A DNA stretch of 64,000 nt from Anaerolineae bacterium (GCA_021463865.1 JAJTXY010000017.1:20635-84634); one strand, 5' to 3'. Counted from the first letter of the stretch, positions 302 through 27,639 are shown. Made by a program: numbers and translations. Notes: generated by a model not told the origin, from the letters alone.

Positions 302-661
302 ATGCGTATTCTGTATCTCGAAGATGACCCCGCCAACCTCGCACTCTTTGATCGTATTGCTCAACTCTATGGGGATGAAATTATCACCGTCGCCCACCCT
401 GAAGATGCCATTGCTGAATTACAATCTGACGCATTCGATCTGATCGTCGCCGATGTGTACTTGGGCACAGGTGTGATGGATGGCATTGAATTTGCCGAAT
501 ATCTACGAAGTGCTGGTCTGCAAACTCCCATTATTTCAATCACCGCCTACGATTTTGAAGAATATGAACGCCGTAGCGAAGAAGCAGGCACGGAATATCA
601 TATTGTCAAACCCATTGCGGTGAATGACCTCATCGCCGTTATTAACCAGTTTCGGGCCTAG
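302..661 (+). CDS. Stand-alone response-regulator receiver (CheY-like) protein
   Basis: 119 aa. All receiver signature residues are present: acidic pair in LEDDP, phospho-acceptor Asp in DLIVADVYL, Thr in ISITAY, Lys in IVKPI. There is no output domain. Confidence 0.85.
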   Translation: MRILYLEDDPANLALFDRIAQLYGDEIITVAHPEDAIAELQSDAFDLIVADVYLGTGVMDGIEFAEYLRSAGLQTPIISITAYDFEEYERRSEEAGTEYHIVKPIAVNDLIAVINQFRA

Positions 662-682
662 TCGCCTTCAGGATGATGACGG

Positions 683-2305
683 GTGTCCGCTGAAAATCCT
701 TCACCAAGTCGTCATCCCATTTTACAGTTTGCCTCTCAATTAACCCGCTCCGACCTCCTGCTCATCCTATTGATTGGGCTGGTGGCTTTTTCGGCGCGGG
801 TGATACCCGAACCCCGAACCGTTGACGATGCCTTTATTACTTTTCGCTACAGTCGCAATCTCGTCGAGGGGGAAGGCTTCGTTTATAACTCCGGCAGCAA
901 GGTATTGGGGACTACTACCCCGCTTTATGCCCTGCTGATGGCGGGTTTTGGTGGCATTATGGGCGATCATTATCAGTGGTACGCCCTATTCATCAATGCC
1001 CTTGCCGATACCCTTTCCGTTGTGCTGCTTTATCTGCTGGCCCGATATTTAACAGGCAGCCGTCTGGCGGGTGGGCTTCTGGGCCTGCTTTGGGCGCTTA
1101 TCTCGTACAGCGTCACCTTTGCGATTGGCGGCATGGAAACTAGTGTCCACAACCTGTTCATGATTGCCGCATGGGTCGCCTATCTGGATAAACGGCGCGG
1201 TTGGGTTGGGGCGTTGGTAGCGTTAGGTCTCCTGACCCGCCCTGATGCCTTACTATGGGCCGCCCCGCTGATGCTCCATCAATTATGGACAGCGTGGCGT
1301 GAGCGCACTCCCCATCAAAAACTATGGACATGGTTGCCCTTGCCGGACTACGTTGCTGGCTTAATCATTGGCCTCCCTTGGGTTATCTTTGCCACCCTCT
1401 ATTTTGGCAGTCCGCTCCCCCATACTATTGGCACAAAATCGGTGGTCTATCAAGTGGATGGCACGCAGGCCTTGATTAAGATGTTGCAACAATTCGCCAA
1501 CCCGATTGACCAATTTGAAATTTTGGGGCCAGTCGTCGGCACAGGTATCGGCTTGATTTTATTTCCCTTTCTGGCATTGGTCGGGATGCGGGCGATGTTA
1601 AAACCGCATCCCCGGACTCTGCCGATTTTTCTCCATGCGTGGCTATATCTCATCGTCTTTAGTACCACCAATCCCTTAATTTTCCGCTGGTATCTGACCC
1701 CGCCCATGCCCGCCTATTTATTGGCTATTGTCTGTGGAGCATATTCATTAGGCCAGTCGCTCACTCCGTCAATCGGAGCACAACGGCTCAAAATCGTCGC
1801 CTATACCCTGAGCGCGTTTGCCATATTGTGTGTGCTGGCAGGTTGGCAGCTAAAGCCCGACCATCGCCCCAATCGCCCCGCTCCCAAAATGGCTTTCCAC
1901 GAAATTGAGCTGAATTATCAAACCGTTGCCGAGCGCCTTGTCCGCGAAGAGAATATCGGGCCAGATACCCTCGTTGCGGCTGGGGATATTGGCGCAGTAG
2001 GCTTTTTCAGCCATGCCCATATTCTGGATACTATCGGCCTTGTCACCAGCGACTTAAATCGCTACTACGAAATAGAAGGCTATGACGACCTTATTCCTGA
2101 AGATGGCAATTATGCTATCCCGCCCCAGATGATTTTTGACCGCCAGCCCGATTACATCATTACAATGTTAGATTTTGTCAAACTTGGTTTACAACAAGAC
2201 CCGCGTTTTGCCGAGCAATATGAACTCCTCTACGAAATCAAAACGGATTATTATGGCGGCGCGATGCTGGTCTATAAGCGCATTAGCCCTGCCGCTGCCG
2301 AGTAG
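683..2305 (+). CDS. Polytopic membrane protein, putative GT-C-fold glycosyltransferase (DD motif type)
   Basis: 540 aa with a GTG start 21 nt after the receiver stop. About a dozen hydrophobic segments. An Asp-Asp motif (TVDDAFITFRY) lies directly after the first TM helix, the position of the catalytic acidic motif in GT-C enzymes. The C-terminal ~130 aa are soluble. The function is an inference. Confidence 0.55.
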   Translation: MSAENPSPSRHPILQFASQLTRSDLLLILLIGLVAFSARVIPEPRTVDDAFITFRYSRNLVEGEGFVYNSGSKVLGTTTPLYALLMAGFGGIMGDHYQWYALFINALADTLSVVLLYLLARYLTGSRLAGGLLGLLWALISYSVTFAIGGMETSVHNLFMIAAWVAYLDKRRGWVGALVALGLLTRPDALLWAAPLMLHQLWTAWRERTPHQKLWTWLPLPDYVAGLIIGLPWVIFATLYFGSPLPHTIGTKSVVYQVDGTQALIKMLQQFANPIDQFEILGPVVGTGIGLILFPFLALVGMRAMLKPHPRTLPIFLHAWLYLIVFSTTNPLIFRWYLTPPMPAYLLAIVCGAYSLGQSLTPSIGAQRLKIVAYTLSAFAILCVLAGWQLKPDHRPNRPAPKMAFHEIELNYQTVAERLVREENIGPDTLVAAGDIGAVGFFSHAHILDTIGLVTSDLNRYYEIEGYDDLIPEDGNYAIPPQMIFDRQPDYIITMLDFVKLGLQQDPRFAEQYELLYEIKTDYYGGAMLVYKRISPAAAE

Positions 2306-2373
2306 TGAGCCTACGTTTCCTCAACCGTGTAATTACATCACGTGGGCCTGCCGTGTAGATTTGTCCACCCCTC

Positions 2374-2382
2374 TGCTATAAT
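2374..2382 (+). promoter_or_regulatory. Candidate extended -10 promoter element (TGcTATAAT) upstream of the flippase-like gene
   Basis: TGCTATAAT lies 29 nt upstream of the TTG start at 2411, in the only >100-nt gap of the first 20 kb. No good -35 element is present. Confidence 0.35.
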
Positions 2383-2410
2383 GGCGCGGCGTTAAACTTT
2401 CTGGAACGAG

Positions 2411-3457
2411 TTGAGTGCGTTGAAAAAGTGGCTGACCTTTGGCCTCGGCGCGGTAGTCAGTATGGGGATTTTTGTCGCGTTGGTTGGCTCGGAACTGGAT
2501 GCAGTACAAAATGAATTGGCACGGGCGCGTTACATTTATCTGCTGCCGTGTGCTTTGCTGCTGTTTGCTGGGCTACTGACGCGGGCCATGCGCTGGCATA
2601 TCCTGTTGGATAAAAAAGTCAGTGTGTGGCACAGTTTTCATATCATGAATGTCGGCTACTTTGTCAGTTCCATTCTGCCTTTCCGCATTGGTGATTTCGC
2701 ACGGGCATGGCTGACTAGCCGCCTCAAATCACCTGTTTCTGGGTTTACCTCGCTTAGTACCATTGTGGTCGAGCGTTTAGTTGACCTGCTATTTGTTGTG
2801 TTGGTGTTGGGGGTCTGCCTTGCCGTTTTGGACGTCCCCCGCGAAGTTACCTCCGTCGGCGTGTTAATGGGCACTGCCGCGCTAGTCGCCCTGATGACCC
2901 TCAGCATTTTTTCTGCCCGACCCGCATTAGCCAAATCCATCTTAAATTGGGTCGAAAGCTGGCTGCCAATTTTGCGCCGCTTAAAATTAGATGAACGGCT
3001 TGACCATATCTTGATAGGCTTTGCACCGATTGGTCGCCCCAAAACTGCTTTGACCGTTTTTTTCTGGACGGCCTTTTCGTGGTTTTTTTCCATTTTGGCG
3101 GGTTACGCTCTTCTATTCATGCTCTTTGACAACCCCAGCATCGAAGCCGCCGCTCTGTTTGTCGTCTTGGGGTCGTTCTCCGTCGCCCTGCCCGCCGTCC
3201 CCGGCAATCTTGGCCCATTTGAAGGTGCTGTCGTGGGTGGATTATGGATTGCAGGGCTAATTGAGAAAGCCACCGCCCCCGAAAACGCTCCAGCGATTGC
3301 TTTTGCCGCGATTTTGCACGCCCTGTTGATTGCCCTGTATATTATTTTTGGGCTGATCGGACTGTATGTCGAACACACCTCGGTACGACAGGTGCGGCGC
3401 GGCGCATCTACTCTGACCGAACATGACATAAAAATATTGGCGGAGGGGGTATCGTGA
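2411..3457 (+). CDS. Flippase-like UPF0104 / lysyl-phosphatidylglycerol-synthase-TM-domain family membrane protein
   Basis: 348 aa with a TTG start and 8 or more TM segments. The RAMRWHILL motif after TM2 and the overall layout are typical of the UPF0104 (LPG_synthase_TM) family often found next to glycosyltransferases. Confidence 0.7.
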   Translation: MSALKKWLTFGLGAVVSMGIFVALVGSELDAVQNELARARYIYLLPCALLLFAGLLTRAMRWHILLDKKVSVWHSFHIMNVGYFVSSILPFRIGDFARAWLTSRLKSPVSGFTSLSTIVVERLVDLLFVVLVLGVCLAVLDVPREVTSVGVLMGTAALVALMTLSIFSARPALAKSILNWVESWLPILRRLKLDERLDHILIGFAPIGRPKTALTVFFWTAFSWFFSILAGYALLFMLFDNPSIEAAALFVVLGSFSVALPAVPGNLGPFEGAVVGGLWIAGLIEKATAPENAPAIAFAAILHALLIALYIIFGLIGLYVEHTSVRQVRRGASTLTEHDIKILAEGVS

Positions 3458-4689
3458 ACCACACTACACCCGCTGAAGAAATTGTGACTTTATTAGACAA
3501 TTATCGAGAGACAGACCGCCCTTTGCGAATTTTGGCGGCCCTGCAATTTTATCTACCTCATCGCACGGGCTATTCTCTGCACGTTCAGCGCGTCGCCGAG
3601 GGATTAGCCGCACGCGGTCATCACGTCACGGTCTTAACGGCCCGCCATCATATTGACCTGCCCCGCGATGAAACCATTAACGGCGTGCGGATTGTACGCC
3701 TTTGGGCACCCATCAAGGTCAGCCGGGGCATGGTGATGCCTGCGTATCCTTGGTCAATGTGGGGCTTTCTGCGCCAAAATGATGTCGTCTGGCTCAATTT
3801 GCCCATGTTGGAAACCGCCCTGACCGCTTTTTTGGCGCAACGGGCACGGCGCGGCCTGATCGCCACCCATCACGGCGATTTATTGTTGGGGCCGGGATTA
3901 AAAAACCAATTTATTCAATGGTTCACCTTCCAAAATTATCGTTATATGGCAAAACAAGCCAACCGCATCATCGCCTACAGCCACGATTACGCCGACCACA
4001 GCTATTATCTGGAAGATTATCGGGACAAGGTTTCAGTGATTTTCCCGCCCATTCAAATCCCCCATCCCGAACCGCAGCGGGCCGCCGAACTACGTGAACG
4101 CTGGCAGCATAATGGTGGCCCCATCATCGGCTATGCAGGTCGCTTTGTTAAAGAAAAACGCCCCGATCTGCTGATTCGCTCCCTTGAAATCATCAACGAA
4201 CATTATCCCAATGCGCGGGTCGTGTTTGCGGGGGAATATGACATTAAATACGAAAATACATGGGAAGAAAACCAACCGCTGGTACGCCGTTTCGAGGAGC
4301 AGTTGATTTTCCTCGGCCTCATTACCAGCGCCCAAGCCCTTGCCAATTTTTATGCCGCCTGTGATGTCATTGTCCTGCCCAGCGACACGGAATGTTTTGC
4401 ACTGGTACAGGTCGAGGCCATGATGTGTGGCACGCCCATCGTCGCCACCGATATTCCCGGCGCGCGGGTGCCGCTGCAAGAAACGGGCATGGGCAAAATT
4501 GTGCCGCGTGGCGATCATCAAGCCATCGGCGAGGCAGTGGTTGAAATTCTGCAAAATCCTGAGCGGTACCGGCACACCCGCGAAGAAATTGAGACCTTTT
4601 TTAATTACGATGAAACCATCAGCCGCTATGAAAAACACATGCGGAATGCTGCCCGCACCTCGATTTACCACAAAGATGAGGTGCGCTAA
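3454..4689 (+). CDS. Glycosyltransferase family 4 (GT-B, Glycos_transf_1)
   Basis: 411 aa. The GTG start overlaps the upstream stop (GTGA). C-terminal pattern GRFVKEKRPDLLI...VVFAGEY...LPSDTECFALVQVEAMMCGTPIVATDIPG. Confidence 0.85.
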   Translation: MNHTTPAEEIVTLLDNYRETDRPLRILAALQFYLPHRTGYSLHVQRVAEGLAARGHHVTVLTARHHIDLPRDETINGVRIVRLWAPIKVSRGMVMPAYPWSMWGFLRQNDVVWLNLPMLETALTAFLAQRARRGLIATHHGDLLLGPGLKNQFIQWFTFQNYRYMAKQANRIIAYSHDYADHSYYLEDYRDKVSVIFPPIQIPHPEPQRAAELRERWQHNGGPIIGYAGRFVKEKRPDLLIRSLEIINEHYPNARVVFAGEYDIKYENTWEENQPLVRRFEEQLIFLGLITSAQALANFYAACDVIVLPSDTECFALVQVEAMMCGTPIVATDIPGARVPLQETGMGKIVPRGDHQAIGEAVVEILQNPERYRHTREEIETFFNYDETISRYEKHMRNAARTSIYHKDEVR

Positions 4690-5541
4690 ATGGCGGTAGA
4701 TAGACAAACCATAACCCGGCTCACCCGTAATGAGGCAGATATGGCTTTCAAAAAGCGGGTCGAAACCATTTTTGAATGGCTTCCCCCCAGCGATGATCAG
4801 GTGATTTTGGATTGTGCCTGTGGGCGTGGTTTCTATTTGAATTACTATCGGCACATCAGCAGTGTGAAGTTGATTGGGTTGGAACTCGAAGGTGACATTA
4901 TCCGCAAGGCTCAAGGCAATATCGGCCACTTGCCCGATATTTTGTTGACCCAAGCCAATATTTATCACCTGCCCTTTGCCGACAGCAGTTTTGATGGCGT
5001 CATCCTCAGCGAAATTTTGGAGCATGTGGATAACGATGTCGCGGGCCTCAAAGAGGTCTACCGGGTACTGAAACCGGGCGGGGTCGCCGCCATTACCGTG
5101 CCCAACGCCAATTATCCGTTCCTGTGGGATCCCATCAATCGCACGCTGGAAAATGTCTTTCACACCAAAATACGGCGCGGGCCACTGGCAGGCATTTGGG
5201 CCAATCATGTCCGACTCTATACAATCGAGCAATTGCGGAAAGCGGTCTCTTCTGCTGGATTCATGATAGAACAGGAACGTGCCTTTACGCACTACAGCTT
5301 TCCCTTTATTCATAATCTGGTGTATGGTCTAGGCAAACCCTTGCTCGAAAGTGGCCTTATGCCTGATAATCTGGCGGCGGCGGCTGACCGGACAACTTTT
5401 GATCAAAATGATGGCAGTTGGCACAATCCGATTAATCTGGGTTTGGCGGTCTTGAATTTTTTTGACCGTCCCAACAAATTGGATGAGCCGCTGCATCGGA
5501 GTACGGTAAACTTGTGCATCAAAGCGCGTAAAAAAGCCTAA
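4690..5541 (+). CDS. Class I SAM-dependent methyltransferase
   Basis: 283 aa. The ATG immediately follows the upstream TAA. Motif I VILDCACGRGFY, then FDGVILSEILEHV and VLKPGGV. Confidence 0.85.
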   Translation: MAVDRQTITRLTRNEADMAFKKRVETIFEWLPPSDDQVILDCACGRGFYLNYYRHISSVKLIGLELEGDIIRKAQGNIGHLPDILLTQANIYHLPFADSSFDGVILSEILEHVDNDVAGLKEVYRVLKPGGVAAITVPNANYPFLWDPINRTLENVFHTKIRRGPLAGIWANHVRLYTIEQLRKAVSSAGFMIEQERAFTHYSFPFIHNLVYGLGKPLLESGLMPDNLAAAADRTTFDQNDGSWHNPINLGLAVLNFFDRPNKLDEPLHRSTVNLCIKARKKA

Positions 5542-5568
5542 TTTATCCTATGTCTTTTAACCGGACGC

Positions 5569-8310
5569 ATGACTGAATTTATTCCGAATTCCACCCCTGA
5601 AACCACGCCGCCAAGTGCCCCCATCTCTGCACCTGCACGGCCCGTTTTTGATTTCGAGTCACTGACGCTGTGGCAAGCCCTCTGGTTGTTTCTCTATCGG
5701 CCCGGACGGGTTGCCAACGAATTTTGGCGTGTCATTACGGAACCCGACCCAAAATCGCGTCGGCCCGATTCGCGGATTTTACAGGATACCCCGCTCGGTA
5801 GTGAATTTGTCTCCTCCGATATGCCCTATACCCCCGTCATTGACGAGGCGGGGACACTTTTGCCAGAGGAGCAGGCCGCCTTACAAGCCGCTGTCGCCCG
5901 TGCCGATGCCCGTTATCGCAGCAGCGACCTCACCTTACCCGAACCGCCGGAATGGGCCAAAAATCTGCGTTTTGGTCAATATCTGGTCATTGAGAAAAAC
6001 AGCGCCTTACAAGCAGGCATTTTGCTCGTTGGATTTTTCTTCTCGCTAATTGGTATGGGCCTGCTGCGTTCATCGGCTGTTGACCCTCTCAAGCGAGCGG
6101 CGGGTGATACCAATGGTGCATTTTTCTGGCTGTTCTTCGGCAGCATCATCGCCCTAGTTGCAGCGGGGTTGGGCTGGCGTGAAAAATCCAAGCCGACTCG
6201 AACCATCATTGTTGAAGATGAAACTAATGATGCCAGCGATGGTGATTTACTGCAATCCGCTCTCCGCTTTTTCAATCGCCATTCCTTGCGACTCGCCTTA
6301 GTACCCGTAGCCAGCCTATTTGCATGGTTCGCCTATGACAAAAATGTCGCCCTCATCCCGACGACAGGCGAAGTCGAAGCCATTTTTACGACCACTGGTG
6401 TCATTGCTTGGTTCATGGCGACCTTCTTATGGTTTCTTATTTTTGCCGTAGACCTCAATAAAATTGCCCTCAAGCTGCTGGTACGTCCCGATAACATCGC
6501 CCCGTCTACCCCTCCGTCCGCGCCGCACCGTCGCCGATTTCAATTCCGTTGGGCCTATGTCGCCTTAATGCTGATTTTCCTGCTGGCCTGCTATTTCCGT
6601 CTGCATAATCTCGATGGCGTACCCCCAGAGATGACCAGCGATCATATTGAAAAATTGCGAGATGCCTATCGCGTGGATCAAGGGTATCGCGGTATCTTTT
6701 TTGAAAATAACGAGGGCCGCGAAGGGTTTCAAATGTACTTTGCGGCGATTATTGGGGACTGGTTCGGCGTTGGTTTTAATTTCCGCACCCTCAAATATGC
6801 CACCATCGTCGAAGGCCTATTGACCATTTTGCTGGCCTATTGGTTTGGCAAAGAGATGATCGGACGCGAAACCCGCGAACGTCAAGAACTGGGAGATTGG
6901 GTTGGCCTAGCAATGGCGGCCCTCCTTGCCATTAGCTCATGGCACACCATGTTATCGCGCCTCGGTCTGCGGATTGCCCTTACCCCGTTGACCACCCTCA
7001 TCGTCGTGATTTTTTTGGTGCGGGCTGTTCGTTATAACCGCCGCATTGATTTTGTCTTGATGGGCGTAATGTTAGGTATCGGCACCTATTTTTATCAAGC
7101 CAACCGAATGCTGCCCCTTTTGGTTGTGCCGATTGTGCTACTAGCCGCGCTCGCCAAAGCCAAAATCAACTGGAAAATCACTGCCCGTTACATGGTCAAT
7201 TTGGCAATGGCTGGGTTGATCGCATGGGTGATTTATCTGCCCATGTATCGCTACTCGGTAGAAAATCCGGATGCCTTTTGGAAGCGCACCTATGGACGAC
7301 TTTTTGGCAATTACACCTTCGATTGCCGTAATGTTGAAGGCGAAACCCCCAGCTACTGCACCCCCTCAACGACTGTCGTATTGGAACACATTGTGGATCA
7401 CCATGACGTATTGTGGGATAACTATGTCCGTGCGTTTAAGATGTACTCATGGCAAGGCGACGGCATGTGGATTTTGAACGGCAGTGGCTATCCCGCGCTG
7501 GATACCATCACCAACGCCTTATTACTCATGGGGTTGGGCATGTGGGTAGTGCTCATCATCAAACGCCGCGACGTTGCCCTGCTGGCTATTCCTTTAGGGG
7601 TAATTGTGATGCTGCTGCCAAGCACATTGGCACTTACCCAAGTTACCGAAAATCCATCTTTCACCCGCACCAGTGGCACCATCCCGTTCATTTTCCTGAT
7701 GGCGGCCTATCCACTGGGTTTGATGGCCCATGAAGCGACCAGAGCAGGTTATTCACGTAAGCCCTTTGTCGCCAGTTCTGCCCTGCTTGTCACCCTTTTG
7801 GTTGGGCTAGCCATCCCGTCCAACTACGATACCTACTTCAACGTCTATCGGGAAGGTTATGAAATTTCATGGAAGCCCTATACGCAGATTGCCACCCCGC
7901 TGCGTGATTTTGCCGAAACACGTGGCAGTTATGGCAATGCGTTTTATGTACATTCTGAACACTGGCTAGATCATCGAATTTTGGGTACTGTAGCTGGCGA
8001 TTTTGCTTGGCCCAATGGTCTGCTCAAGGCCGAGGATGTTTACCAACACATCGCTGGCAATCAGGGTACAGTCCATCAATATGACCCCACCAAGCCGCTG
8101 TTGTTTATGGTAAACAAATCGAACGTTGCGGGCCTAGAGTGGTTGCAAACCTATTTCCCCGGTGGTGAAGTGCGGGAAATTCGAGTCAAATTCAACAACA
8201 ATTATTATGTCTATGAAGTGCCGGCAGGATGGCAATGGCTGATTATTCGGGTTACGGAGCAAACCGCCCGATGGTCATGTATCACTAACTGTCCCCCCGG
8301 CCCCAAGTGA
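5569..8310 (+). CDS. Large polytopic membrane protein, ArnT/PMT-like (GT39/GT83-type) putative GT-C glycosyltransferase
   Basis: 913 aa. A ~330-aa N-terminal extension carries several TM helices. An ArnT/PMT_2-like core then starts at FRWAYVALMLIFLLACYFRLHNLDGVPPEMTSDHIEKL, followed by many TM segments and a soluble C-terminal ~170 aa. The family assignment rests on pattern only. Confidence 0.55.
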   Translation: MTEFIPNSTPETTPPSAPISAPARPVFDFESLTLWQALWLFLYRPGRVANEFWRVITEPDPKSRRPDSRILQDTPLGSEFVSSDMPYTPVIDEAGTLLPEEQAALQAAVARADARYRSSDLTLPEPPEWAKNLRFGQYLVIEKNSALQAGILLVGFFFSLIGMGLLRSSAVDPLKRAAGDTNGAFFWLFFGSIIALVAAGLGWREKSKPTRTIIVEDETNDASDGDLLQSALRFFNRHSLRLALVPVASLFAWFAYDKNVALIPTTGEVEAIFTTTGVIAWFMATFLWFLIFAVDLNKIALKLLVRPDNIAPSTPPSAPHRRRFQFRWAYVALMLIFLLACYFRLHNLDGVPPEMTSDHIEKLRDAYRVDQGYRGIFFENNEGREGFQMYFAAIIGDWFGVGFNFRTLKYATIVEGLLTILLAYWFGKEMIGRETRERQELGDWVGLAMAALLAISSWHTMLSRLGLRIALTPLTTLIVVIFLVRAVRYNRRIDFVLMGVMLGIGTYFYQANRMLPLLVVPIVLLAALAKAKINWKITARYMVNLAMAGLIAWVIYLPMYRYSVENPDAFWKRTYGRLFGNYTFDCRNVEGETPSYCTPSTTVVLEHIVDHHDVLWDNYVRAFKMYSWQGDGMWILNGSGYPALDTITNALLLMGLGMWVVLIIKRRDVALLAIPLGVIVMLLPSTLALTQVTENPSFTRTSGTIPFIFLMAAYPLGLMAHEATRAGYSRKPFVASSALLVTLLVGLAIPSNYDTYFNVYREGYEISWKPYTQIATPLRDFAETRGSYGNAFYVHSEHWLDHRILGTVAGDFAWPNGLLKAEDVYQHIAGNQGTVHQYDPTKPLLFMVNKSNVAGLEWLQTYFPGGEVREIRVKFNNNYYVYEVPAGWQWLIIRVTEQTARWSCITNCPPGPK

Positions 8311-18400: not shown

Positions 18401-18696
18401 CAGGGATTCCCACCCTGCTCGGTTGGGACAATCATGAGCGGCAGTGGCGCGGCGATACCTACAACGATGTGGCAGGAAATCGTGAAGGCGATATTTTTAC
18501 CCTCTACACCACTGAGGATTGGAACACCGCGCAGGATATTATAGATAAATACGGCATTGATTATGTCATGGTCGGCAATTCGGAGTTTAATGCCTATGGC
18601 GGTCAAGACTCCGACGGCCTCAGCAAATTTAGCGAACTTTTAGACCCGGTTTGTCATGAAGGCAGTGTGGCCCTCTATCGGGTCAGTGCGGAATAG
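15433..18696 (+). CDS. Chlor_Arch_YYY / DUF2298 family integral membrane protein (single module)
   Basis: 1087 aa with the ATG 2 nt after the upstream stop. TEKPMEMAFINGVRNSATFPPKDPWMAGYAISYYYFGY (YYYFG at 16114-16128). It is colinear with module 2 of the upstream gene: DNHPHV vs DLHAHM, FKLYYQSW vs FKFYIQAW, GIPTLLGWDNHERQWR vs GLPTILGWNFHQRQQR. Confidence 0.8.
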   Translation: MAQIQQSTSSRRNSSAFNPLWLLWLVPAAAVVVSIANYFGWFYFDGVIPKFDSLRWELFTNWTGRELGDVLVWWLLVTLAGAAVFPLMFRLMSGLSDRGYTLARAAGLMLIGYIFWFLASIGVLRNEVGGIVFAWIVVIILSLVAWFRGSDWPARAEFRAWLREHLPLIVFTEVLFLGAMIIWAFVQAHNPEITSTEKPMEMAFINGVRNSATFPPKDPWMAGYAISYYYFGYVITASLADLSGVTTGIAFKLVNPLLFAMTLTGILGITYNLVRAGGRTWRVGNRHAALATGLLAAFFITIMGNLGTLLVEMPYRGYTAETPLIKDVVNADYFDFWDVRDRTGPFMVQNVTDPQTGLPAVHLLDTDTYVSPEDPITQNYVFAPDEDRDGIPNWDDTDDTELEEAGNHWDYWWWFKQSRLVYDKKFSGGYEEAITEFPQFSFILGDNHPHVLALPFTLLIIGLAASLAMRPTKLANWEIIVYGVFFGGIIFMNAWDALYLGLLVGAEALRRLMHNGGLNGFGELGRVITLETRRRQNLYLLGPVFIVLLLFFATSDTLGDGLSIGEILIGLILVAPVTLIVNWALDDNDWGSVVRLGGSLAILFVMLYLPWLVSFTSQSQGMSVNLIYPTRSQQLFLQFGIFGLLILPFIFQQMGRAGRRIRYGAVIGLILLGLIFAIGVPLFSAAIVDSRTCPLQKGQEGLIGTLAEPARSNCQARFRLFSELRDDNEIRQVKLLGQDLGELSKTRLTLYTVYQRRLGALIGQIVLLTIATIIMMRLFARNLNSHDTDKPTPIIDYSPGTGVALLLIAMGVVTTFVPDVIYLIDNFGNRMNTIFKLYYQSWTLFSIGAAYAVFAILNGAPNRADEENRIAPVSVFVLRGVYVVGLLYLLWAGALYPYYAVRSRALYETNLDNQLAMIEACQSTGATDCPGIPEISLDAGPTIIQAIGTDEWKLINECFMKLEPRKNDAILVETPGGGYTAHLGRVSMLTGIPTLLGWDNHERQWRGDTYNDVAGNREGDIFTLYTTEDWNTAQDIIDKYGIDYVMVGNSEFNAYGGQDSDGLSKFSELLDPVCHEGSVALYRVSAE

Positions 18697-21030: not shown

Positions 21031-21630
21031 ATGGACACAAAACACGACGACCCAATGCTCAATCCGTTGATAACCCGCATTCAACGCGGCGATCAAACGG
21101 CCTGCACCGACCTGTATGACCTATATGCGCCGGGTGTCTATCGCTTGGCCTATAGCGTCTTGCTGCATCGTCAGGATGCGGAAGATGTAGTACAAGAAGT
21201 GTTTGTCTATGTCTTTCGCAATCTCAAATTGTATGATCCCAATCGGGGTCAATTCCGCACATGGCTTTATACGATTACCATCAGTCGCTGCCGCAATGCC
21301 CGCCGCCGCAAGATGCTGCCCACCGTCGCCCTAAGCGATTTATTATTACTCGGCCTTGAACCGCACGGGCCAGAAAGTGAAAATCCGGAGGCCGCCAGTC
21401 TGCGTGAGGATGCCAACCGCGTCTTGGCCCAAGCCCTCAAAACGCTTTCATCCCGTCTGCGTGAAGCCGTCGCCTTGCGTTATGGGCAGGGGTTGACCTA
21501 TCGTGAAATGGGGGAGATTTTGAACATCCCACCCAAAACCGCTGAGTCGCGCATTCGGCTGGCCCATGAAGCCCTCCGCAGTGCGATGCAGCCCCATGAT
21601 ATTGCCTTACTAGAGGAATTTTTAGGATAG
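21031..21630 (+). CDS. ECF (sigma-70 family, group 4) RNA polymerase sigma factor
   Basis: I place the start at ATG 21031 (MDTKHDD...), not the listed 20959, which overlaps the upstream gene. Region 2: DAEDVVQEVFVYVFRNLKLYDPNRGQFRTWLYTITISRCRNARRRK. Region 4: LREAVALRYGQGLTYREMGEILNIPPKTAESRIRLAHEALR. Confidence 0.85.
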   Translation: MDTKHDDPMLNPLITRIQRGDQTACTDLYDLYAPGVYRLAYSVLLHRQDAEDVVQEVFVYVFRNLKLYDPNRGQFRTWLYTITISRCRNARRRKMLPTVALSDLLLLGLEPHGPESENPEAASLREDANRVLAQALKTLSSRLREAVALRYGQGLTYREMGEILNIPPKTAESRIRLAHEALRSAMQPHDIALLEEFLG

Positions 21631-21632: not shown

Positions 21633-22268
21633 GTGGACATCAAGGAGCAACTTTTAGCCTATCTGGAAGGGACTCTCACCTCGGCTCAACGGCGCGAGGT
21701 CGTGCGGCGTTTGGCTACCTCGCGTCAATGGCAGGCCGAGCTGGAGGCCATCCAATATTCCCAATCCCAACTCAAGCGCGAAATGCCTGCGTTTGGCTGT
21801 CCTACCCACAAGCAGTTAACCGCGTTGCTGCCGGATATATTGGAAAAATCCAAACAGCCTTCCCGCCTCCATGAAAAGATGGATTGGACACAAGGCGGGA
21901 TGCTGTTGTGCATGATCGCCGTAATGTTGATGATGGTTCCCATCTTGATTAAGGCCCAAACAGCAGTTTTGGCTTCGACCAATCTTAAAAATATTCCGGC
22001 GACCACCAATACGCCTGCCGCCATTCGGGTCAACACGCTCGAAGTGCCCCGCGCAGTGGTAGCGTCGTCCAGCGGGGCGAATGTGGTCGAAGCGGTGGCC
22101 TATCGCATCCAAGCGGATTTCCAATATTGTGATCTAAGCACGGGCCTCTTTTTACCCATTTCATCCCGCACCCGCTCGGATGTCCGGGTTGTTGGGTTGA
22201 CCCCTGCTCCTGTACCCGGTTCGACACTTGAACCAAGCCGCGAGGCCGCCCTTGAAACTCGTCAGTAA
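21633..22268 (+). CDS. Putative membrane-spanning anti-sigma factor (non-zinc type)
   Basis: 211 aa with a GTG start 2 nt after the sigma-factor stop. The N-terminal helix LLAYLEGTLTSAQRREVVRRLATSRQWQAELEAI resembles an anti-sigma domain but lacks the HxxxCxxC zinc ligands. One TM segment (GGMLLCMIAVMLMMVPILI) and a ~100-aa extracytoplasmic tail. Confidence 0.5.
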   Translation: MDIKEQLLAYLEGTLTSAQRREVVRRLATSRQWQAELEAIQYSQSQLKREMPAFGCPTHKQLTALLPDILEKSKQPSRLHEKMDWTQGGMLLCMIAVMLMMVPILIKAQTAVLASTNLKNIPATTNTPAAIRVNTLEVPRAVVASSSGANVVEAVAYRIQADFQYCDLSTGLFLPISSRTRSDVRVVGLTPAPVPGSTLEPSREAALETRQ

Positions 22269-22281
22269 TTCGTCTTAAATC

Positions 22282-22290
22282 TGCTATACT
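22282..22290 (+). promoter_or_regulatory. Candidate extended -10 element (TGcTATACT) upstream of the 1754-aa gene
   Basis: CTGCTATACT sits in the 68-nt gap before ATG 22337. It shares the string CTGCTATA with the element at 2373-2382. No convincing -35 element is present. Confidence 0.3.
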
Positions 22291-22336: not shown

Positions 22337-25300
22337 ATGGCAACATTAAACCCAACGGCCCAAAACGACGGGCCACCCGTCTTAGAAAAAGCGCTTCAGC
22401 GACTCTATACGCTCAACTTTGAAACCATTGCCTACCTCATCATCTTTGCGGTGGCGGTCATCAGTCGGTTTTGGGATGTCGGCGCACGTGTCATGAGCCA
22501 CGACGAAAGTCTCCACACCTACTATTCGTGGAAGCTCTATGACGCAGGCGATTTTCAACATACCCCCCTGATGCACGGGCCAGTGATTTTCCATATGGTC
22601 GCGTTTTTCTATTGGCTGTTCGGCCCCAGCGATTTTAGTGCCCGGGTCTACCCGGCGGTGCTGGGGGTGTTGCTGGTCATGTTCCCGCTGTTGTTTAAGC
22701 GTTGGATCGGCAGAACCGGGGCGATCATCGCCAGCATCGGCCTGATTATCTCACCAATGATCTTGTTTCACAGCCGCTATATCCGTGAAGACGTCCCGTC
22801 CGTTTTCTTCACGCTGGTCATGTTCTACGGCATTATGCAATACATAGATGGCGAAAAACCGCGTCGTCCGGTCTGGCTGGCGGTGATTGGCGGCGGTATG
22901 CTGCTTTCGCTTGCCAGTAAAGAAGTCGCCTTTATGTATATTGCCATTATTGGCAGCTTCTTCACCCTCTATTGGATTTTGCGGATCATCCAAGACCTGA
23001 ACTTCAAACGCCAAATTCCGGTTGATGATGTTTATGTACCCAACCCAACCATTGACGATGAACAAGAGGGAGTCAAAGCTACCCCCGTTGAAGCCCCTAC
23101 CCCGCTTTGGCAATTGCTGTTTGGGCATCTTGTCACGCTCGCCTTTGCAGGCATTTTGGGGTATCTGGCAGGTCATCTATTGGGCATCTTTACCGAAGCA
23201 CTGCAACCGGGGAATATGATGCTTGGCCCACTCAGTCTCACTCAAGGCCGATTTTTCACACTGGTTTTTGCTGCCGTCTTTTTTATCTTGGCAGAATTGT
23301 TTGGCCCAACACGCGGGCTATTAGTCTTCTTCCTCGGTCGTGGCGCACGCCTCGTCAAAACCCGCCCCGAACCCAGCGTCGCCCAAATGGTTGTCAATTT
23401 GCTGGCCGATGCTCGTAGCACCATTATTTTGATTACGGCGGGGTTGGTGATTGGTGGGGTTTCGGCGTTGTGGGCCTTCAGCATTTTGGACATCATCAAG
23501 CCCGCAACCGTCTTTGAAGAATTCACCTTTGCCCAACGCATCCAAGAGCAGGCCGCCACTAACCCCAATATTATCAATGAGCTACCCGGCCCCGGCCAAA
23601 AAATGGAGGCCATTGATGTTCGTGTCAATGAAACCGAACTCGGTCACGCGGCAACATGGTTGCTCGTCCCCATCGGCGTGATATGTTTCTTGACAGTTTT
23701 GATTGCTGCCCTCAAAACCCCGACCTCTTTGCGATTTACACCGGGGGATGCGGCTGTTGTGATCGGCGGGGTAGCGCTCAACGTTATCGTGCTATTTTTG
23801 AATGTCGTCGGGCCAGATTTTGGTCTACCCAAAGCCGCCCTATGGATTCTGCTGCCCATTGACCTGATGGTGGTGGCCTTCCTGCTGCGCCCCCCTTGGC
23901 AAGATGTCTTAATTATCTTCCTTGTAGCCACGATCTTTTTTGGGGTGCTCTTGGTAGCTGAACGGCGCAGTTTGAAGACCGAAGAAGGCGAACAGCAGTC
24001 CCAATTTGCCGCCGACCCCAACGCCGCTGAGATTCAGCAGGATGTTCAACACGACAACAAATATATATGGTTCACATGGCTGGCCGGGACAATGATTACC
24101 GCAGCCGTACTATTGACCCGCATGTTCACCAACTGGTGGGATTTCCTGAATCGCCAACCCGTTTTTGATGTCTTGATTGTGATTGGCACATTAGCCTTTC
24201 CGTGGTTGGCGGCCTTCCCGCTGTTTTGGGCCGGCTATACATTGGACGCCGCTCCACTCCCGGATGACACCTTTAAAGCTGCCATATTAGTCGTCATTCC
24301 ATTTTTCTTGGTGAGTGCTTCTGTCGGCTTGGCATGGAATTATCGCCTCTGGCCCATCCCACTAGCAGTATTTGCCTTGTTGTTTGTCGTCTTCTTTACA
24401 ACCTTTTTTACCAATGGCAATGGCGTCGGAACAGGTTTGATCGGCTCACTGGGTTATTGGCTAGAACAACAAGGGGTGCGACGCGGCAGTCAACCGCAGT
24501 ATTATTACACCTTCCTTGAAATCCCGGTCTATGAATTTTTGCCGACCATCATTGCCAGCATCGCGGGGTTTGCGGGTCTATCAGGTCTCTTTGAGTTCCG
24601 CCAAAAAGCCAACCGCTATATTCGTGAGGTCGCCTATCGCCAAAACGCCCAATCTGTCGGGGAAACAAGTAGCGTTGAAGCCGCCCTCACTCCCGAACAA
24701 TCGCGTTCCCTTTATGAAATGATGGGTAGCGAAGGCGAAACACTCACCAGCATCTCAACTGAAATGATTGAGATGGCCGAACGCAGCTATTCTGCTGGCG
24801 AGACACAACTAGGGTCTCCCACCGTCGCAACCAATGTAGCAAGTCCAGCCTCCCCAACCGAAGCAGTAGCTACAGATGAAAATGGAAACAATCCCGCCCT
24901 GCCCGATTTAAGCGATTGGTTGGCCGAGCATGGTGAAAATGGCAATTATAGCCTACCCAATTGGGCACGCCCCTATGACCATGACGAAGAAATGGCTAAA
25001 CGCACTAATGGCGACCCGACCTATTTAGGCGGCTTCCCCTTCCTGCAATTCATGGGCTATTGGAGCGTGATGATTATCGTTGCCCTCACGATGGCAGGCG
25101 AAAAGATGCCTTGGTTGACCACCCATATCAGCGTGCCATTGATCTTTGTGGGCGGCGCTTATCTGGGAACGGTTATTGATAAAATCCGCTGGTCAAGTGT
25201 CAAAGCCAGTGGTTGGGTATTGTTGGCCCTCGTCGTACCCGTATTCCTAATTGCCCTTGAACAACTATTGATGCCAGCCTTCACAGGTGGGACTGACCTG

Positions 25301-27601
25301 CCGTTTCAAGGCCGTTCTCAAATGGAATTGGAAGCTACCGGGCAGTGGATCGCCGCGCTTATTGGCGTCATCATTACAGGCTATTTCATTGTACAGTTGA
25401 CCATCCACACTGGGTTTGCACAGGCCCGTAAACTCATCTTCGTTTCGGCGACCATTTTGCTGGCGGTTCTGACCGCACGGGTGGCGTGGCTCGCAGCCTA
25501 CATCAATTACGACTACCCCACCGAATTTATGGTCTATGCCCACTCCGGCCCAGCGGTCAAGACGGTCATGGAAGATGTCTACTACCTAGCCGAACGCCAC
25601 CCCGACGGCATGAACATGCGCATTGTCTATGATGATGAGTCGTCATGGCCCTTCACATGGTATCTACGCGATTTCCGCAATTACGGCTTTATGGTAGGCG
25701 AGGCCACCACTGTCAGCAGCAACCCTGCCCAGTTAGACGGCGCGGAAGTGGTCATCGTTGGCAACAAGAAAAACGCCGAAGTCGAACGCATCCTCGGCAA
25801 AGATTACTATCGCTTCGACTATATCCGGTTGTGGTGGCCCATGCAGGCCTATTTCAATCTGGATTACAACCGTATCGCCAATCTTTTTGAATCCGACACC
25901 ACCAACCCTGCCGCCAGCTATTATCGGCGGGCCATTTGGGACATCTGGTGGGCACGCGACTACAAAGGCTATGGGCAGGCTGAATGTATTGAGCGGGATA
26001 TGCGCCAATGTCTGATTGAAGGCAGCGAAGACGCCTATGACCCAACCTGTATCCAGCGCGTCACCAGTGAATGTGCTACTGACAGCCGCTATAACGTTGA
26101 AAACTGGCCCGTCTCCGATGCCCTGTATGTCTATGTCCGCAAAGATTTTGTTGCCACCATTTGGGACAGCGGTCTTGATGGACAAAGTGTCACCGAACGT
26201 TTGGTTCCCGATCCCGAAAACGTGGTACAGCGCGAAGTTGTCCCCAGTGTCGCATTTGGTCAAGGCGAAATAACCGAGCCACGTGATATTGAAGTAGACG
26301 CCGAGGGCAACCTGGTCGTGGCGGATAACAAGAACCGCCGTATTGCCATCTACTCCCCCGACGGCACCTTCCTACGAGAAATGGGGGTTGGTCAACTGAA
26401 TGAACTATGGGGTGTCGCGGTCAGTCCGGTGGATGGCAACATCTATGCCGCCGACACGTGGAATCATCGCGTTGTCGTCTTTAACCCCGCAGGCGAATTG
26501 ATTGATACCTATGGCCGTAATGGGGTCATTGTCGATGGCACGGACTCAATCGAAGGTTTCTATGGCCCACGCGATGTCGCGGTTGATAAGAACGGGTTCA
26601 TCTATGTGGCCGACACAGGCAACCATCGTATCCGCGTCTATGACCAAAATTGGAACTATATCCGCGACATTGGGTCACGGGGCACAGGCGCAGGGCAGCT
26701 TCAAGAACCTGTGGGCATCGCCATCCACCCGATTTCTGGCGAACTCTACATCGCCGAAACGTGGAATCAGCGTGTTTCTGTCTTCAAGCGCGACGGCATC
26801 TATGTCCGTAGTTGGGATGTCAATATGTGGGAAGGAACCCAGTTCTCGCCCAATCGTCCCTATCTAACCATTTCACCAGATGGCACCCTCATTTTTGTCG
26901 GCGATATGGACAGCAGCGGCGGCAACAGTGGGCCGCGCATCGTCGGTTATGATCTCAGTGGTCAAGCGATGATTGCCTTCAATGGGGGTCTCGCCGTAGA
27001 CGCGAATAATCTCGACCAAAACGGCAATATCGCAGGCGTTTTGATTGTAGGAGGTCTGGCCTTCGGTCAAAACGGGCAACTATATGTGGCCGACGCAGGC
27101 ACATCGCGCATTGTCGTCTTTCCGCCGACGGGTATCACTGGCAACCTCGCCCCCATCCAAGACCCCAGTTATGGCACGGGCGAGAACACCTCCACAGGCA
27201 GTGATACCACGCAGGGTGAAACCTTCCTGACCACCGCCGACATGGAATTTTTGGATGCGTTTGGCCTATCCTATTGGCGTATCCTCAGCACAGGTGATTA
27301 CGAAGGTTACAAAACCCTCTTCTGCCCGGAAGTGCTCAGTTATATTCCAAATCGAGATACCTTCCTCAACACCATCGCCAAGAATTATTTAGGTGTGAAC
27401 GTAGATCAGACCGTCTCGGTGCCTGAAATCGTGGATGGCAAAGTCGTCATCCGGTGGAGCGGCTACATCGTGCGGGGTGTTGGTTCCGGCAATGAACAGG
27501 TCGAAACCATCAACACCGTCGCGCCCCTTGAGATGCAGCGCAGTGGTGCGGGTTGGTATATCTGTCCCGAACGACCCGTTTTCCGTCCCGGTGGCGGTTA
27601 A
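22337..27601 (+). CDS. Giant (1754 aa) TIGR03663-like GT-C-type membrane protein fused to a six-blade NHL beta-propeller
   Basis: N-terminal region: RFWDVGARVMSHDESLHTYY (DE at 22502-22507) and PLMHGPVIFH (HGP at 22574-22582), the invariant dipeptide and tripeptide I recall for TIGR03663. Many TM segments. An S/T/E-rich linker lies at about nt 24660-24920, followed by a second TM block, a soluble region (IVYDDESSWPFTWYLRDF), six NHL repeats and a ~130-aa C-terminal domain. Confidence 0.7.
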   Translation: MATLNPTAQNDGPPVLEKALQRLYTLNFETIAYLIIFAVAVISRFWDVGARVMSHDESLHTYYSWKLYDAGDFQHTPLMHGPVIFHMVAFFYWLFGPSDFSARVYPAVLGVLLVMFPLLFKRWIGRTGAIIASIGLIISPMILFHSRYIREDVPSVFFTLVMFYGIMQYIDGEKPRRPVWLAVIGGGMLLSLASKEVAFMYIAIIGSFFTLYWILRIIQDLNFKRQIPVDDVYVPNPTIDDEQEGVKATPVEAPTPLWQLLFGHLVTLAFAGILGYLAGHLLGIFTEALQPGNMMLGPLSLTQGRFFTLVFAAVFFILAELFGPTRGLLVFFLGRGARLVKTRPEPSVAQMVVNLLADARSTIILITAGLVIGGVSALWAFSILDIIKPATVFEEFTFAQRIQEQAATNPNIINELPGPGQKMEAIDVRVNETELGHAATWLLVPIGVICFLTVLIAALKTPTSLRFTPGDAAVVIGGVALNVIVLFLNVVGPDFGLPKAALWILLPIDLMVVAFLLRPPWQDVLIIFLVATIFFGVLLVAERRSLKTEEGEQQSQFAADPNAAEIQQDVQHDNKYIWFTWLAGTMITAAVLLTRMFTNWWDFLNRQPVFDVLIVIGTLAFPWLAAFPLFWAGYTLDAAPLPDDTFKAAILVVIPFFLVSASVGLAWNYRLWPIPLAVFALLFVVFFTTFFTNGNGVGTGLIGSLGYWLEQQGVRRGSQPQYYYTFLEIPVYEFLPTIIASIAGFAGLSGLFEFRQKANRYIREVAYRQNAQSVGETSSVEAALTPEQSRSLYEMMGSEGETLTSISTEMIEMAERSYSAGETQLGSPTVATNVASPASPTEAVATDENGNNPALPDLSDWLAEHGENGNYSLPNWARPYDHDEEMAKRTNGDPTYLGGFPFLQFMGYWSVMIIVALTMAGEKMPWLTTHISVPLIFVGGAYLGTVIDKIRWSSVKASGWVLLALVVPVFLIALEQLLMPAFTGGTDLPFQGRSQMELEATGQWIAALIGVIITGYFIVQLTIHTGFAQARKLIFVSATILLAVLTARVAWLAAYINYDYPTEFMVYAHSGPAVKTVMEDVYYLAERHPDGMNMRIVYDDESSWPFTWYLRDFRNYGFMVGEATTVSSNPAQLDGAEVVIVGNKKNAEVERILGKDYYRFDYIRLWWPMQAYFNLDYNRIANLFESDTTNPAASYYRRAIWDIWWARDYKGYGQAECIERDMRQCLIEGSEDAYDPTCIQRVTSECATDSRYNVENWPVSDALYVYVRKDFVATIWDSGLDGQSVTERLVPDPENVVQREVVPSVAFGQGEITEPRDIEVDAEGNLVVADNKNRRIAIYSPDGTFLREMGVGQLNELWGVAVSPVDGNIYAADTWNHRVVVFNPAGELIDTYGRNGVIVDGTDSIEGFYGPRDVAVDKNGFIYVADTGNHRIRVYDQNWNYIRDIGSRGTGAGQLQEPVGIAIHPISGELYIAETWNQRVSVFKRDGIYVRSWDVNMWEGTQFSPNRPYLTISPDGTLIFVGDMDSSGGNSGPRIVGYDLSGQAMIAFNGGLAVDANNLDQNGNIAGVLIVGGLAFGQNGQLYVADAGTSRIVVFPPTGITGNLAPIQDPSYGTGENTSTGSDTTQGETFLTTADMEFLDAFGLSYWRILSTGDYEGYKTLFCPEVLSYIPNRDTFLNTIAKNYLGVNVDQTVSVPEIVDGKVVIRWSGYIVRGVGSGNEQVETINTVAPLEMQRSGAGWYICPERPVFRPGGG
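26279..27127 (+). repeat. Six tandem NHL repeats (predicted six-blade beta-propeller) inside the 1754-aa ORF
   Basis: The blades are recognisable by eye: NLVVADNKNRRIAIYSPDG, NIYAADTWNHRVVVFNPAG, FIYVADTGNHRIRVYDQNW, ELYIAETWNQRVSVFKRDG, LIFVGDMDSSGGNSGPRIVGYDLSG, QLYVADAGTSRIVVFPP. Confidence 0.8.
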
Positions 27602-27608
27602 ATTTGGT

Positions 27609-27639
27609 AAGGACGAGGCTTCCAACCGCGTCCTTTTTT
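27609..27639 (+). terminator. Rho-independent terminator closing the 27-kb gene train
   Basis: Stem AAGGACG (27609-27615) pairs with CGTCCTT (27629-27635). The loop is 13 nt and a run of six T follows. It starts 8 nt after the stop codon. Confidence 0.75.

Follow-up and report, generated by a model that had tools for sequence, protein, structure and literature searches.

This study concerns a train of genes for very large membrane proteins in an uncultured member of the Anaerolineae. It lies at one end of a 64,000-nucleotide stretch of DNA (GCA_021463865.1 JAJTXY010000017.1:20635-84634; hereafter the window), which is 95% identical to the Chloroflexota metagenome-assembled genome (MAG) CFX5. 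An initial annotation had described thirteen consecutive plus-strand genes running from the window edge to position 27601, and our list of open reading frames (ORFs) agrees: twelve complete ORFs from position 302 follow an edge gene that ends at 293. The window edge cuts this first gene, leaving 96 of its 97 codons inside. In another assembly of the same organism (L085) the gene upstream of the corresponding AsnC-like gene (97 amino acids) lies on the minus strand, so the train begins right at the window edge. The junctions listed by the annotation, counted from the receiver gene (21, 105, -4, 0, 27, 7, 2, 11, 34, 2 and 68 nt), were all reproduced, that of 34 nt only with a start at 21031 for the extracytoplasmic function (ECF) sigma factor gene, which is also the start used by an independent gene call (199 amino acids). 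Six large proteins with many hydrophobic segments, of 540, 913, 2370, 1087, 762 and 1754 amino acids as previously given (7426 codons in sum), are referred to here by length, from P540 to P1754. The genes, and the regions recognised within P2370, are as follows:

3-293, plus strand: small AsnC_trans_reg-type protein with a ligand-binding domain only, first gene of the train (NCBIfam LysM-regulator C-terminal match)
302-661, plus strand: single-domain response regulator, receiver only (Pfam Response_reg, 68.4 bits)
683-2305, plus strand: P540, small PMT_2-type GT-C protein (PMT_2, 28.9 bits against a cutoff of 26.1)
2411-3457, plus strand: UPF0104/PplT protein of 348 amino acids (LPG_synthase_TM and TIGR00374)
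3454-4689, plus strand: cytoplasmic GT4 (GT-B) glycosyltransferase (Glycos_transf_1, Glyco_trans_4_4)
4690-5541, plus strand: class I S-adenosylmethionine-dependent methyltransferase, MT (Methyltransf_11/25/31)
5569-8310, plus strand: P913, divergent GT-C protein (predicted structure and Foldseek)
8318-15430, plus strand: P2370, whole gene, with three regions (N-module, middle and C-module)
8318-10624, plus strand: P2370 N-module, PMT/PMT_2-type GT-C (hhalign to P913, Pfam matches of orthologues)
10625-12337, plus strand: P2370 middle region, about 570 amino acids, mostly non-membrane (no family recognised)
12338-15430, plus strand: P2370 C-module, DUF2298/TIGR03662 (Pfam and NCBIfam)
15433-18696, plus strand: P1087, stand-alone DUF2298/TIGR03662 protein (Pfam and NCBIfam)
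18708-20996, plus strand: P762, Agl23-like, TIGR03663-related (sub-cutoff TIGR03663 match, hhalign to P1754)
21031-21630 (alternative start 20959), plus strand: ECF sigma factor of 199 amino acids (Sigma70_r2, r4_2)
21633-22268, plus strand: candidate anti-sigma factor, single-pass membrane protein (weak NCBIfam matches, position after the ECF gene)
22337-27601, plus strand: P1754, TIGR03663/Agl23 family (TIGR03663, PMT, PMT_2 and NHL)

The six giants had been described as GT-C-like throughout. This holds for the proteins of the PMT type, but the six in fact comprise seven modules from three families, and one of these, DUF2298, is only weakly matched to the fold. All seven short motifs quoted for these modules are present; however, their supposed position just after the first hydrophobic helix is wrong for P913, P1087 and the C-module of P2370, in which the motif follows approximately the fifth helix. 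Six of the seven motifs, all but VDDAF of P540 (residue 47), were compared among orthologues, and they are invariant or nearly so, save for the degenerate NREAHE of P762.

The first family consists of P540, P913 and the N-module of P2370, which are GT-C glycosyltransferases of the PMT/PMT_2 type. A search of the giants for PMT_2 had been suggested, and Pfam found it in P540 and P1754. P913 had no match in Pfam, NCBIfam or a sequence search of the PDB; P2370 similarly yielded nothing in the PDB sequence search, and its residues 1-1340 nothing in Pfam or NCBIfam. Thus, neither P913 nor the N-module has a direct Pfam PMT or PMT_2 match of its own. Nevertheless, the two align with each other (hhalign probability 97.8%, E = 8e-13), nine of ten orthologues of the N-module match Pfam PMT or PMT_2 above the cutoff, and some of the 118 homologues of P913, all named ones of which belong to Chloroflexota (Anaerolineae and relatives), carry PMT_2 (PF13231) or bear a GT39 label. 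The N-module motif, H-L-H-P-D107-E108-R-F, is invariant in 49 of 49 sequences. The middle region of P2370 had no Pfam match at E <= 1 and no hhalign match to the other modules.

Although an orphan by sequence, P913 is predicted to adopt a complete GT-C fold. Its AlphaFold2 model (predicted local distance difference test score, pLDDT, 87.5; predicted template-modelling score, pTM, 0.85) was compared with the PDB by Foldseek, and ranks 1-28 were all GT-C enzymes, with probabilities of 0.99-1.00; they include AglB, ArnT, STT3, AftA, PglB, ALG9, ALG3, Pmt4, EmbB and EmbC. Against ArnT the template-modelling score (TM-score), normalised to ArnT, is 0.49-0.50. The GT-C core is preceded by an N-terminal extension of about 320 amino acids with five helices, in which a Pfam scan of the sub-region found nothing. 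The motif T356-S-D358-H-x-E361, invariant in 107 sequences, follows the helix 328-345. The loop preceding that helix contains seven lysine or arginine residues (K/R) and the motif loop only one. We used K/R counts of the motif-adjacent loops as the sole topology evidence of this kind, and dropped hydropathy and K/R counting over whole proteins because uncertain helix counts made whole-protein topology unreliable. An independent pointer comes from a metagenomic homologue of P913 (P0038, 1363 amino acids), in which a full-length cytoplasmic MT (69% identity) is fused to the N-terminus. This places the N-terminus of P913 inside, so that, with five helices in the model, the TSDHxE motif would be outside, in a loop of the GT-C core. 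For P540, P762, P1754 and the N-module of P2370, a similar orientation of the motifs is suggested by homology to PMT-type enzymes.

The second family is DUF2298. The membership of TIGR03662 proposed in the initial annotation is clear for both P2370 (463 bits) and P1087 (400 bits; cutoff 300), and Pfam DUF2298 scores are 322 bits for the C-module of P2370 and 306 bits for P1087, which align with each other at an hhalign probability of 100%. The YYYxG sequence that characterises TIGR03662 is present as a nearly invariant I-S-Y-Y-Y-F-G-Y. In the C-module the acidic motif, E-K-P-M-D, lies at residue 1467. Invariant residues in P1087 are E197, M200, P215-P-x-D218-P-W, I-S-Y228-Y229 and D446-x-H-P-H450, together with W998/H1001/Q1004-W-R-G in a C-terminal soluble domain. 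The AlphaFold2 model of P1087 (pLDDT 89.4, pTM 0.92) matched AglB (E 3.7e-4, probability 1.0) and DPY19 and AftA (probability 0.84-0.99), with pyrophosphatases and ABC transporters interleaved among the GT-C enzymes. The local anatomy fits a GT-C enzyme: in the model, a K/R-rich loop leads into a long helix and then into a loop with two short helices, which holds the invariant E197-K-P-M-E201, P-P-x-D218-P-W and I-S-Y-Y-Y-F-G-Y. The loop before the motif-bearing helix has four K/R in P1087 and seven in the C-module, and the motif loops have one. We therefore describe the predicted DUF2298 fold as GT-C-like but unproven. The family is large: at E <= 0.001 its profile finds 8,606 proteins, each standing for a cluster at 50% identity, among the 1.84 billion representatives of the library searched.

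The third family comprises P762 and P1754. Membership of TIGR03663 had been proposed for the train, and P1754 indeed passes (204.9 bits), but P762 does not (85.6 bits; cutoff 126.25). The two are nonetheless paralogues over nearly all of P762: its N-terminal part aligns with P1754 at an hhalign probability of 99.5%, and the remainder does so at 97.1%. P1754 also matches Pfam PMT_2 (32.5 bits), PMT (30.9 bits) and NHL, and its motif R51...M-S-H-D56-E57-S-L-H60 is invariant in 19 of 19 sequences. Relative to P762 it has an insertion of about 400 amino acids with extra transmembrane (TM) helices; Pfam scans of this region and of the C-terminal half of P762 found nothing. It ends in an NHL beta-propeller (residues 1309-1490, nt 26261-26806), which accounts for all of its matches in the PDB sequence search (TRIM71 and similar). 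In the P762 family the acidic position is variable: at residue 49, 22 of 44 sequences have D, 7 have N and 6 have A. The TIGRFAM family descriptions record the co-occurrence of TIGR03662 and TIGR03663 in Chloroflexi and Archaea. Both had been called families of undescribed function, which is out of date for TIGR03663, now named "flippase activity-associated protein Agl23", and stands for DUF2298: our search of a literature library found no paper on it or on a gene cluster of this kind, in line with the view that no characterised pathway uses these proteins. Searches on Anaerolineae with GT-C, and on O-methyl sugars of the Chloroflexus wall polysaccharide, likewise found nothing usable. Purified Agl23 of Haloarcula hispanica translocates Man5GlcNAc2-PP-dolichol in liposomes, acts in archaeal N- and O-glycosylation and is able to replace Rft1 in yeast (PMC11182771).

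The remaining assignments made previously, namely UPF0104, GT4, methyltransferase and the ECF/anti-sigma pair, are upheld by Pfam and NCBIfam. The UPF0104 protein scores 139.5 bits for LPG_synthase_TM (PF03706; cutoff 33.4) and 49.8 bits for the TIGR00374 flippase-like domain (cutoff 43.2); it is predicted to have about seven to eight TM helices and belongs to the family of the MprF flippase domain. Its gene overlaps that of the GT4 enzyme by four nucleotides (GTGA), and the GT4 gene is thus translationally coupled to it. The GT4 protein passed no NCBIfam equivalog model; its best weak matches were to BshA, MshA and GlcNAc-phosphatidylglycerol (GlcNAc-PG) synthase, the last (NF053787) at 58.2 bits against a cutoff of 480. 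There are precedents for such a pair: operons of GT4 and UPF0104 genes direct the synthesis, and probably the flipping, of glycolipids (PMC12713373), and some proteins of Chloroflexi join PplT to GT-B domains (10.1101/2022.03.11.483950). Archaeal UPF0104 genes adjoin PMT/STT3-like genes and glycosyltransferases (PMC5898192). By analogy, the overlapping pair probably makes and flips a glycolipid or a lipid-linked primer. A second UPF0104/LPG_synthase_TM gene is found elsewhere in the window (47370-48536, minus strand), adjoining a calcineurin-like phosphoesterase (46578-47360, minus strand), so that this flippase-like family occurs in at least two separate contexts in one genome. The MT is functionally tied to P913, a link shown at the level of genes by the fusion in P0038 and by the occurrence of the MT-P913 pair alone in another genome (L084).

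To examine conservation, every protein of the window was searched by tblastn against 78 loci of species-representative genomes. The core UPF0104-GT4-(MT)-P913-P2370-P1087-P762 keeps its order on a single strand, its junctions being 0-27 nt, in relatives ranging from 95% to about 22-35% identity, which bears out the expectation that gene order would be conserved. This order repeats in dozens of species-level genomes, including MAGs labelled Anaerolinea, Bellilinea, Levilinea, Longilinea, Leptolinea and Aggregatilineales and, in part, Caldilineaceae. Of the loci that could be assessed around the P1087 orthologue, 47 of 48 have a P2370-type gene upstream and 58 of 67 have P762 downstream. In one locus (L045) the P2370 orthologue appears to be split into two ORFs, a PMT-type one of 479 amino acids and a DUF2298 one of 1460. 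The cultured Aggregatilinea lenta also carries the cluster; immediately upstream of it (L082, 1-2635) are genes for a GMPPB-like sugar-1-phosphate nucleotidyltransferase and a PGM/PMM (phosphomannomutase-family) protein, a pair that offers a hint of the donor sugar.

The cluster is not, however, one invariant machine of thirteen genes, as had been envisaged. In a relative of 48% identity (L083) the place of P540 is taken by a minus-strand peptidase, and a 623-residue PMT_2 protein of A. lenta was rejected as its orthologue (BLASTP E = 2.5); P540 is, on this comparison, apparently a lineage-specific accessory outside the conserved core. Among assessable loci, an ECF gene was found in 16 of 61 and a full-length P1754 in 18 of 48.

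Regulatory features were sought along the train, with the following candidates:

2374-2382, plus strand: extended -10-like element TGCTATAAT, 29 nt before the UPF0104 start, candidate core promoter
between 20996 and 21031, plus strand: TGTGTAGTATAGG element, directly upstream of the ECF start
22282-22290, plus strand: extended -10-like element TGCTATACT, 47 nt before the P1754 start
27609-27641 (hairpin 27609-27635), plus strand: terminator-like hairpin (7+2 bp) and run of six T, at the end of the train

A scan of the interior of the train found no strong terminator. The hairpin and T run at 27609 are real, but the terminator, previously called strong, is modest (-11.8 kcal/mol, z = -1.66) and was missed by a consensus scan. 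A single operon with one transcript now seems doubtful, given the candidate -10-like elements before the UPF0104, ECF and P1754 genes, which fit the modular conservation described above and so argue against a single obligatory transcript. These elements are leads by position only, as the extended -10 pattern TGNTAKAMT occurs in the window no more often than expected by chance (5 observed, 4.6 expected). The element GTGTGTAnAnA, about 7-10 nt before the ECF start, is kept in relatives of about 47% identity (L009, L010, L012 and L013), which suggests that the ECF gene may have its own promoter and a leaderless or very short-leader mRNA. A TGAAAC-type ECF promoter motif before P1754 was rejected, having the wrong spacing and lying inside coding sequence. 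The sigma factor itself is clear (Sigma70_r2 and r4_2; TIGR02937 99.8 bits, cutoff 42.9). Its putative anti-sigma partner has one TM segment (residues 88-106) and NCBIfam anti-sigma matches of 22 bits; since these are weak, the assignment rests on its position after the ECF gene. At the head of the train, the ligand-binding-only AsnC-type protein (97 amino acids, with no DNA-binding domain) and the receiver-only response regulator form an unusual small regulatory pair, and this AsnC-response regulator pair is kept upstream of the cluster in L083 (4980-5636).

With moderate confidence, we take the locus to be a modular, class-wide cluster of the Anaerolineae whose product, a glycoconjugate of the cell envelope, is assembled at the outer surface of the cytoplasmic membrane. 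On the cytoplasmic side, the GT4 enzyme would glycosylate a membrane lipid or lipid-linked primer in the inner leaflet, and the UPF0104/PplT protein, by analogy with MprF, GpgSDF and HexSDF, would move the glycolipid to the outer leaflet; the MT would work on the cytoplasmic side together with P913, given their fusion. P913, the N-module of P2370 and the accessory P540 could then add sugars outside, presumably from polyprenyl-phosphate-sugar donors, with catalysis by the invariant acidic motif in the first outside loop of the PMT-type modules. The C-module of P2370 and P1087 may also be GT-C-like enzymes with this growing glycan as their substrate, a suggestion we make because one of the two is joined to a PMT-type module in a single protein. 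P762 and P1754 might have either of two roles: to deliver lipid-linked sugars after flipping, the function proposed for archaeal Agl23, or to act as additional transferases. The NHL propeller of P1754 is probably extracellular. The ECF/anti-sigma pair and P1754 would constitute a separate, optional regulatory module, and the enzymes of donor-sugar synthesis and priming would be encoded elsewhere.

Several observations weigh against this interpretation. The modules are not always found together, P540 being missing in L083, the MT-P913 pair occurring alone, and the ECF and P1754 genes being confined to a subset of loci. The Foldseek matches of DUF2298 are weak (best E 3.7e-4, TM-scores 0.2-0.47), and HMM and HH comparisons of this family with the PMT-like modules and with PDB sequences detected no relation. 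P762 has no conserved catalytic acid, and for the sole characterised relative of P762 and P1754 the reported activity is translocation, not transfer. The cluster and its conserved neighbours contain no polyprenyl-phosphate sugar synthase (GT2) or priming phosphoglycosyltransferase, and no Wzx or ABC exporter or ligase. Thus the logic of "build, modify, flip, transfer" proposed initially is present as far as the GT4, MT, UPF0104 and GT-C proteins go, but is incomplete as encoded here. Finally, the locus contains no clue to the identity of the sugar, acceptor or product.

A more far-reaching version of this proposal is tentative, and we think it distinctly less probable than the general one. It would make DUF2298/TIGR03662 a branch of GT-C-type enzymes that has so far gone unrecognised, perhaps a polymerase or an AglB-like en-bloc transferase, with obligate PMT-type and Agl23-like partners, in a pathway common to Chloroflexota and Archaea. 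In Anaerolineae, the seven-gene core would then make the principal envelope glycopolymer, primed on a glycolipid made by the GT4 enzyme and flipped by PplT.

Alternatively, the cluster could glycosylate proteins, as a bacterial counterpart of the archaeal Agl pathways: lipid-linked sugars or oligosaccharides, made in the cytoplasm and flipped by the Agl23-like and UPF0104 proteins, would be transferred by the PMT-type and AglB-like DUF2298 enzymes to secreted or S-layer proteins, with the NHL propeller of P1754 binding the protein substrate. The PMT and PMT_2 families are those of the protein O-mannosyltransferases, and NHL propellers are interaction domains. The oligosaccharyltransferase AglB is the best PDB match of both models, P913 and P1087, although its top rank may merely reflect its large size. 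The relationship of TIGR03663 to Agl23 of archaeal N- and O-glycosylation (PMC11182771), the presence of UPF0104 in archaeal glycosylation neighbourhoods (PMC5898192) and the soluble C-terminal domain of DUF2298, with its invariant W/H/Q-W-R-G patch, point the same way. In contrast, we found no sequence similarity to STT3, AglB or PglB and no WWDYG motif, the conserved core encodes no candidate acceptor protein, and a row of five to seven GT-C-type modules fits stepwise building of a polymer better than a single-step modification. We therefore regard this alternative as unlikely.

A different possibility is that the train has no single product and consists of adjoining but independent envelope modules: a GT4/UPF0104 glycolipid system tuning the membrane, as in GpgSDF and HexSDF; MT with P913; P2370 with P1087 and P762; and an ECF-controlled stress module with P1754. 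The solitary MT-P913 pair, the restriction of ECF and full-length P1754 to roughly a quarter to a third of the loci that could be assessed, the lack of conservation of P540, the promoter-like elements before the UPF0104, ECF and P1754 genes, and the second UPF0104 gene in the window, which indicates that this family has other roles, would all be explained. What makes it rather improbable to us is the core itself, whose seven genes stay on one strand and in one order, 0-27 nt apart, from 95% to about 25% identity and across many genera; colinearity over such a distance is rare for unrelated functions, and the PMT-type and DUF2298 modules are fused in a single polypeptide. Least probable, and very doubtful in our view, is that the giants are mainly translocators or scaffolds, the Agl23-like and DUF2298 proteins flipping or exporting lipid-linked glycans or a polymer made elsewhere and the acidic motifs binding a lipid-phosphate head group: the flipping of Man5GlcNAc2-PP-dolichol by purified Agl23 and the name of TIGR03663 (PMC11182771), the loss of the conserved Asp in P762 and the lack of a detectable sequence relation between DUF2298 and proven transferases speak for this, but it leaves unexplained the strictly invariant D/E motifs at the GT-C catalytic position in P913, the P2370 N-module and P1754, the full GT-C fold of the P913 model and the presence in the cluster of a dedicated flippase-like UPF0104 protein.

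The proposed glycoconjugate cluster matters in several respects. It gives the unstudied DUF2298 family a fixed context, comprising a fused PMT-type GT-C module, Agl23-like paralogues and a GT4/PplT glycolipid module. The Anaerolineae, filamentous bacteria, are abundant in sludge, sediments and mats; to our knowledge their envelope chemistry is poorly known, and a class-wide glycan cluster is an obvious starting point for it. The cluster is relevant, too, to the question of whether proteins of the Agl23 family act as flippases or as transferases, since it combines invariant motifs of the catalytic type with a dedicated flippase-like protein.

Elsewhere in the window, the gene directly downstream of the cluster (28131-29303, minus strand) encodes a protein of 390 amino acids with an N-terminal TIR_2 and a C-terminal FHA domain, and is followed by a methyltransferase gene (29300-30220, minus strand); bacterial TIR domains are often found in defence or signalling proteins. 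A sugar-1-phosphate nucleotidyltransferase with an LbH/GMPPB-like C-terminus (49584-50861, plus strand), similar to the one upstream of the A. lenta cluster, precedes a GH3 glycosidase (to 52675). A UbiA-family prenyltransferase lies 28 kb from the cluster (55406-56500, plus strand); the mycobacterial UbiA homologue starts the pathway to decaprenyl-phosphate-arabinose, the donor of GT-C enzymes. A glycogen/maltodextrin phosphorylase-like gene (DUF3417 and Phosphorylase; 31286-33907, plus strand) and a GlgA-type starch synthase gene (59540-61060, plus strand) belong to storage-glucan metabolism and are unrelated to the cluster. At 56514-59568 (plus strand), a D12-class N6-adenine DNA methyltransferase gene is followed, with a slight overlap, by one for a 663-residue protein that has no Pfam match; the two may be a restriction-modification or defence pair.

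Among known systems, the archaeal Agl22/Agl23 pathway of Haloarcula hispanica resembles the cluster in that P1754 passes TIGR03663 and P762 is its paralogue, and archaeal neighbourhoods of UPF0104, PMT/STT3-like and AglD-like genes likewise combine UPF0104 with a cytoplasmic glycosyltransferase and PMT-like proteins (PMC5898192; PMC11182771). In these archaeal systems, however, the cytoplasmic enzyme is a GT2 dolichol-phosphate-hexose synthase (such as Agl22 or AglD), whereas here it is a GT4 (GT-B) protein. The Anaerolineae proteins are also far larger (a PMT-DUF2298 fusion of 2370 amino acids and an Agl23-like protein with an NHL propeller), the host is bacterial, with polyprenol instead of dolichol carriers, and the cluster has no AglB. 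A GT4 synthase gene adjoins UPF0104 in the GpgSDF system for GlcN-phosphatidylglycerol of Pseudomonas aeruginosa and in HexSDF of Clostridioides difficile (PMC12713373). Unlike a GpgSDF-type operon, the cluster contains no deacetylase gene and its GT4 protein scores 58.2 bits against the cutoff of 480, and its GT4/UPF0104 pair is embedded among GT-C-type genes.

The mycobacterial pathways to phosphatidylinositol mannosides, lipomannan and lipoarabinomannan (PIM/LM/LAM) and to arabinogalactan (GT4 enzymes PimA/PimB', then GT-C enzymes PimE, MptA/B/C, EmbA/B/C and AftA-D) share the scheme of GT4 priming of a lipid inside, flipping, and serial action of large GT-C enzymes outside, with polyprenyl-phosphate sugars as donors, and the models of P913 and P1087 match AftA, that of P913 also EmbB and EmbC. 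However, at the level of sequence no cluster protein is a member of the Emb, Aft, Mpt or PimE families, UPF0104 serves here as the flippase-like partner, and DUF2298 and Agl23-like proteins are not part of the mycobacterial pathway. The three-component systems GtrA/GtrB/GtrV and CsbB/GtcA/YfhO, and ArnC/ArnE-F/ArnT, also load a carrier inside, flip it and use a GT-C enzyme with an acidic motif outside, and ArnT is among the best structural matches of P913; the cluster differs from them in having no GT2 loader, GtrA or small multidrug-resistance-type flippase, and in having several GT-C modules, not one. The N-glycan pathway of the endoplasmic reticulum (GT4 enzymes ALG2/ALG11, Rft1, GT-C enzymes ALG3/9/12/6/8/10, and STT3) offers the same succession of GT4 inside, flipping, GT-C outside and possibly a final transferase, with ALG9, ALG3 and STT3 among the structural matches of P913, but this is an analogy of logic only, with no orthology and no sequon-recognising oligosaccharyltransferase signature. 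In its logic, then, the cluster matches the mycobacterial, three-component, ALG and archaeal Agl systems, whereas its set of proteins matches none of them.

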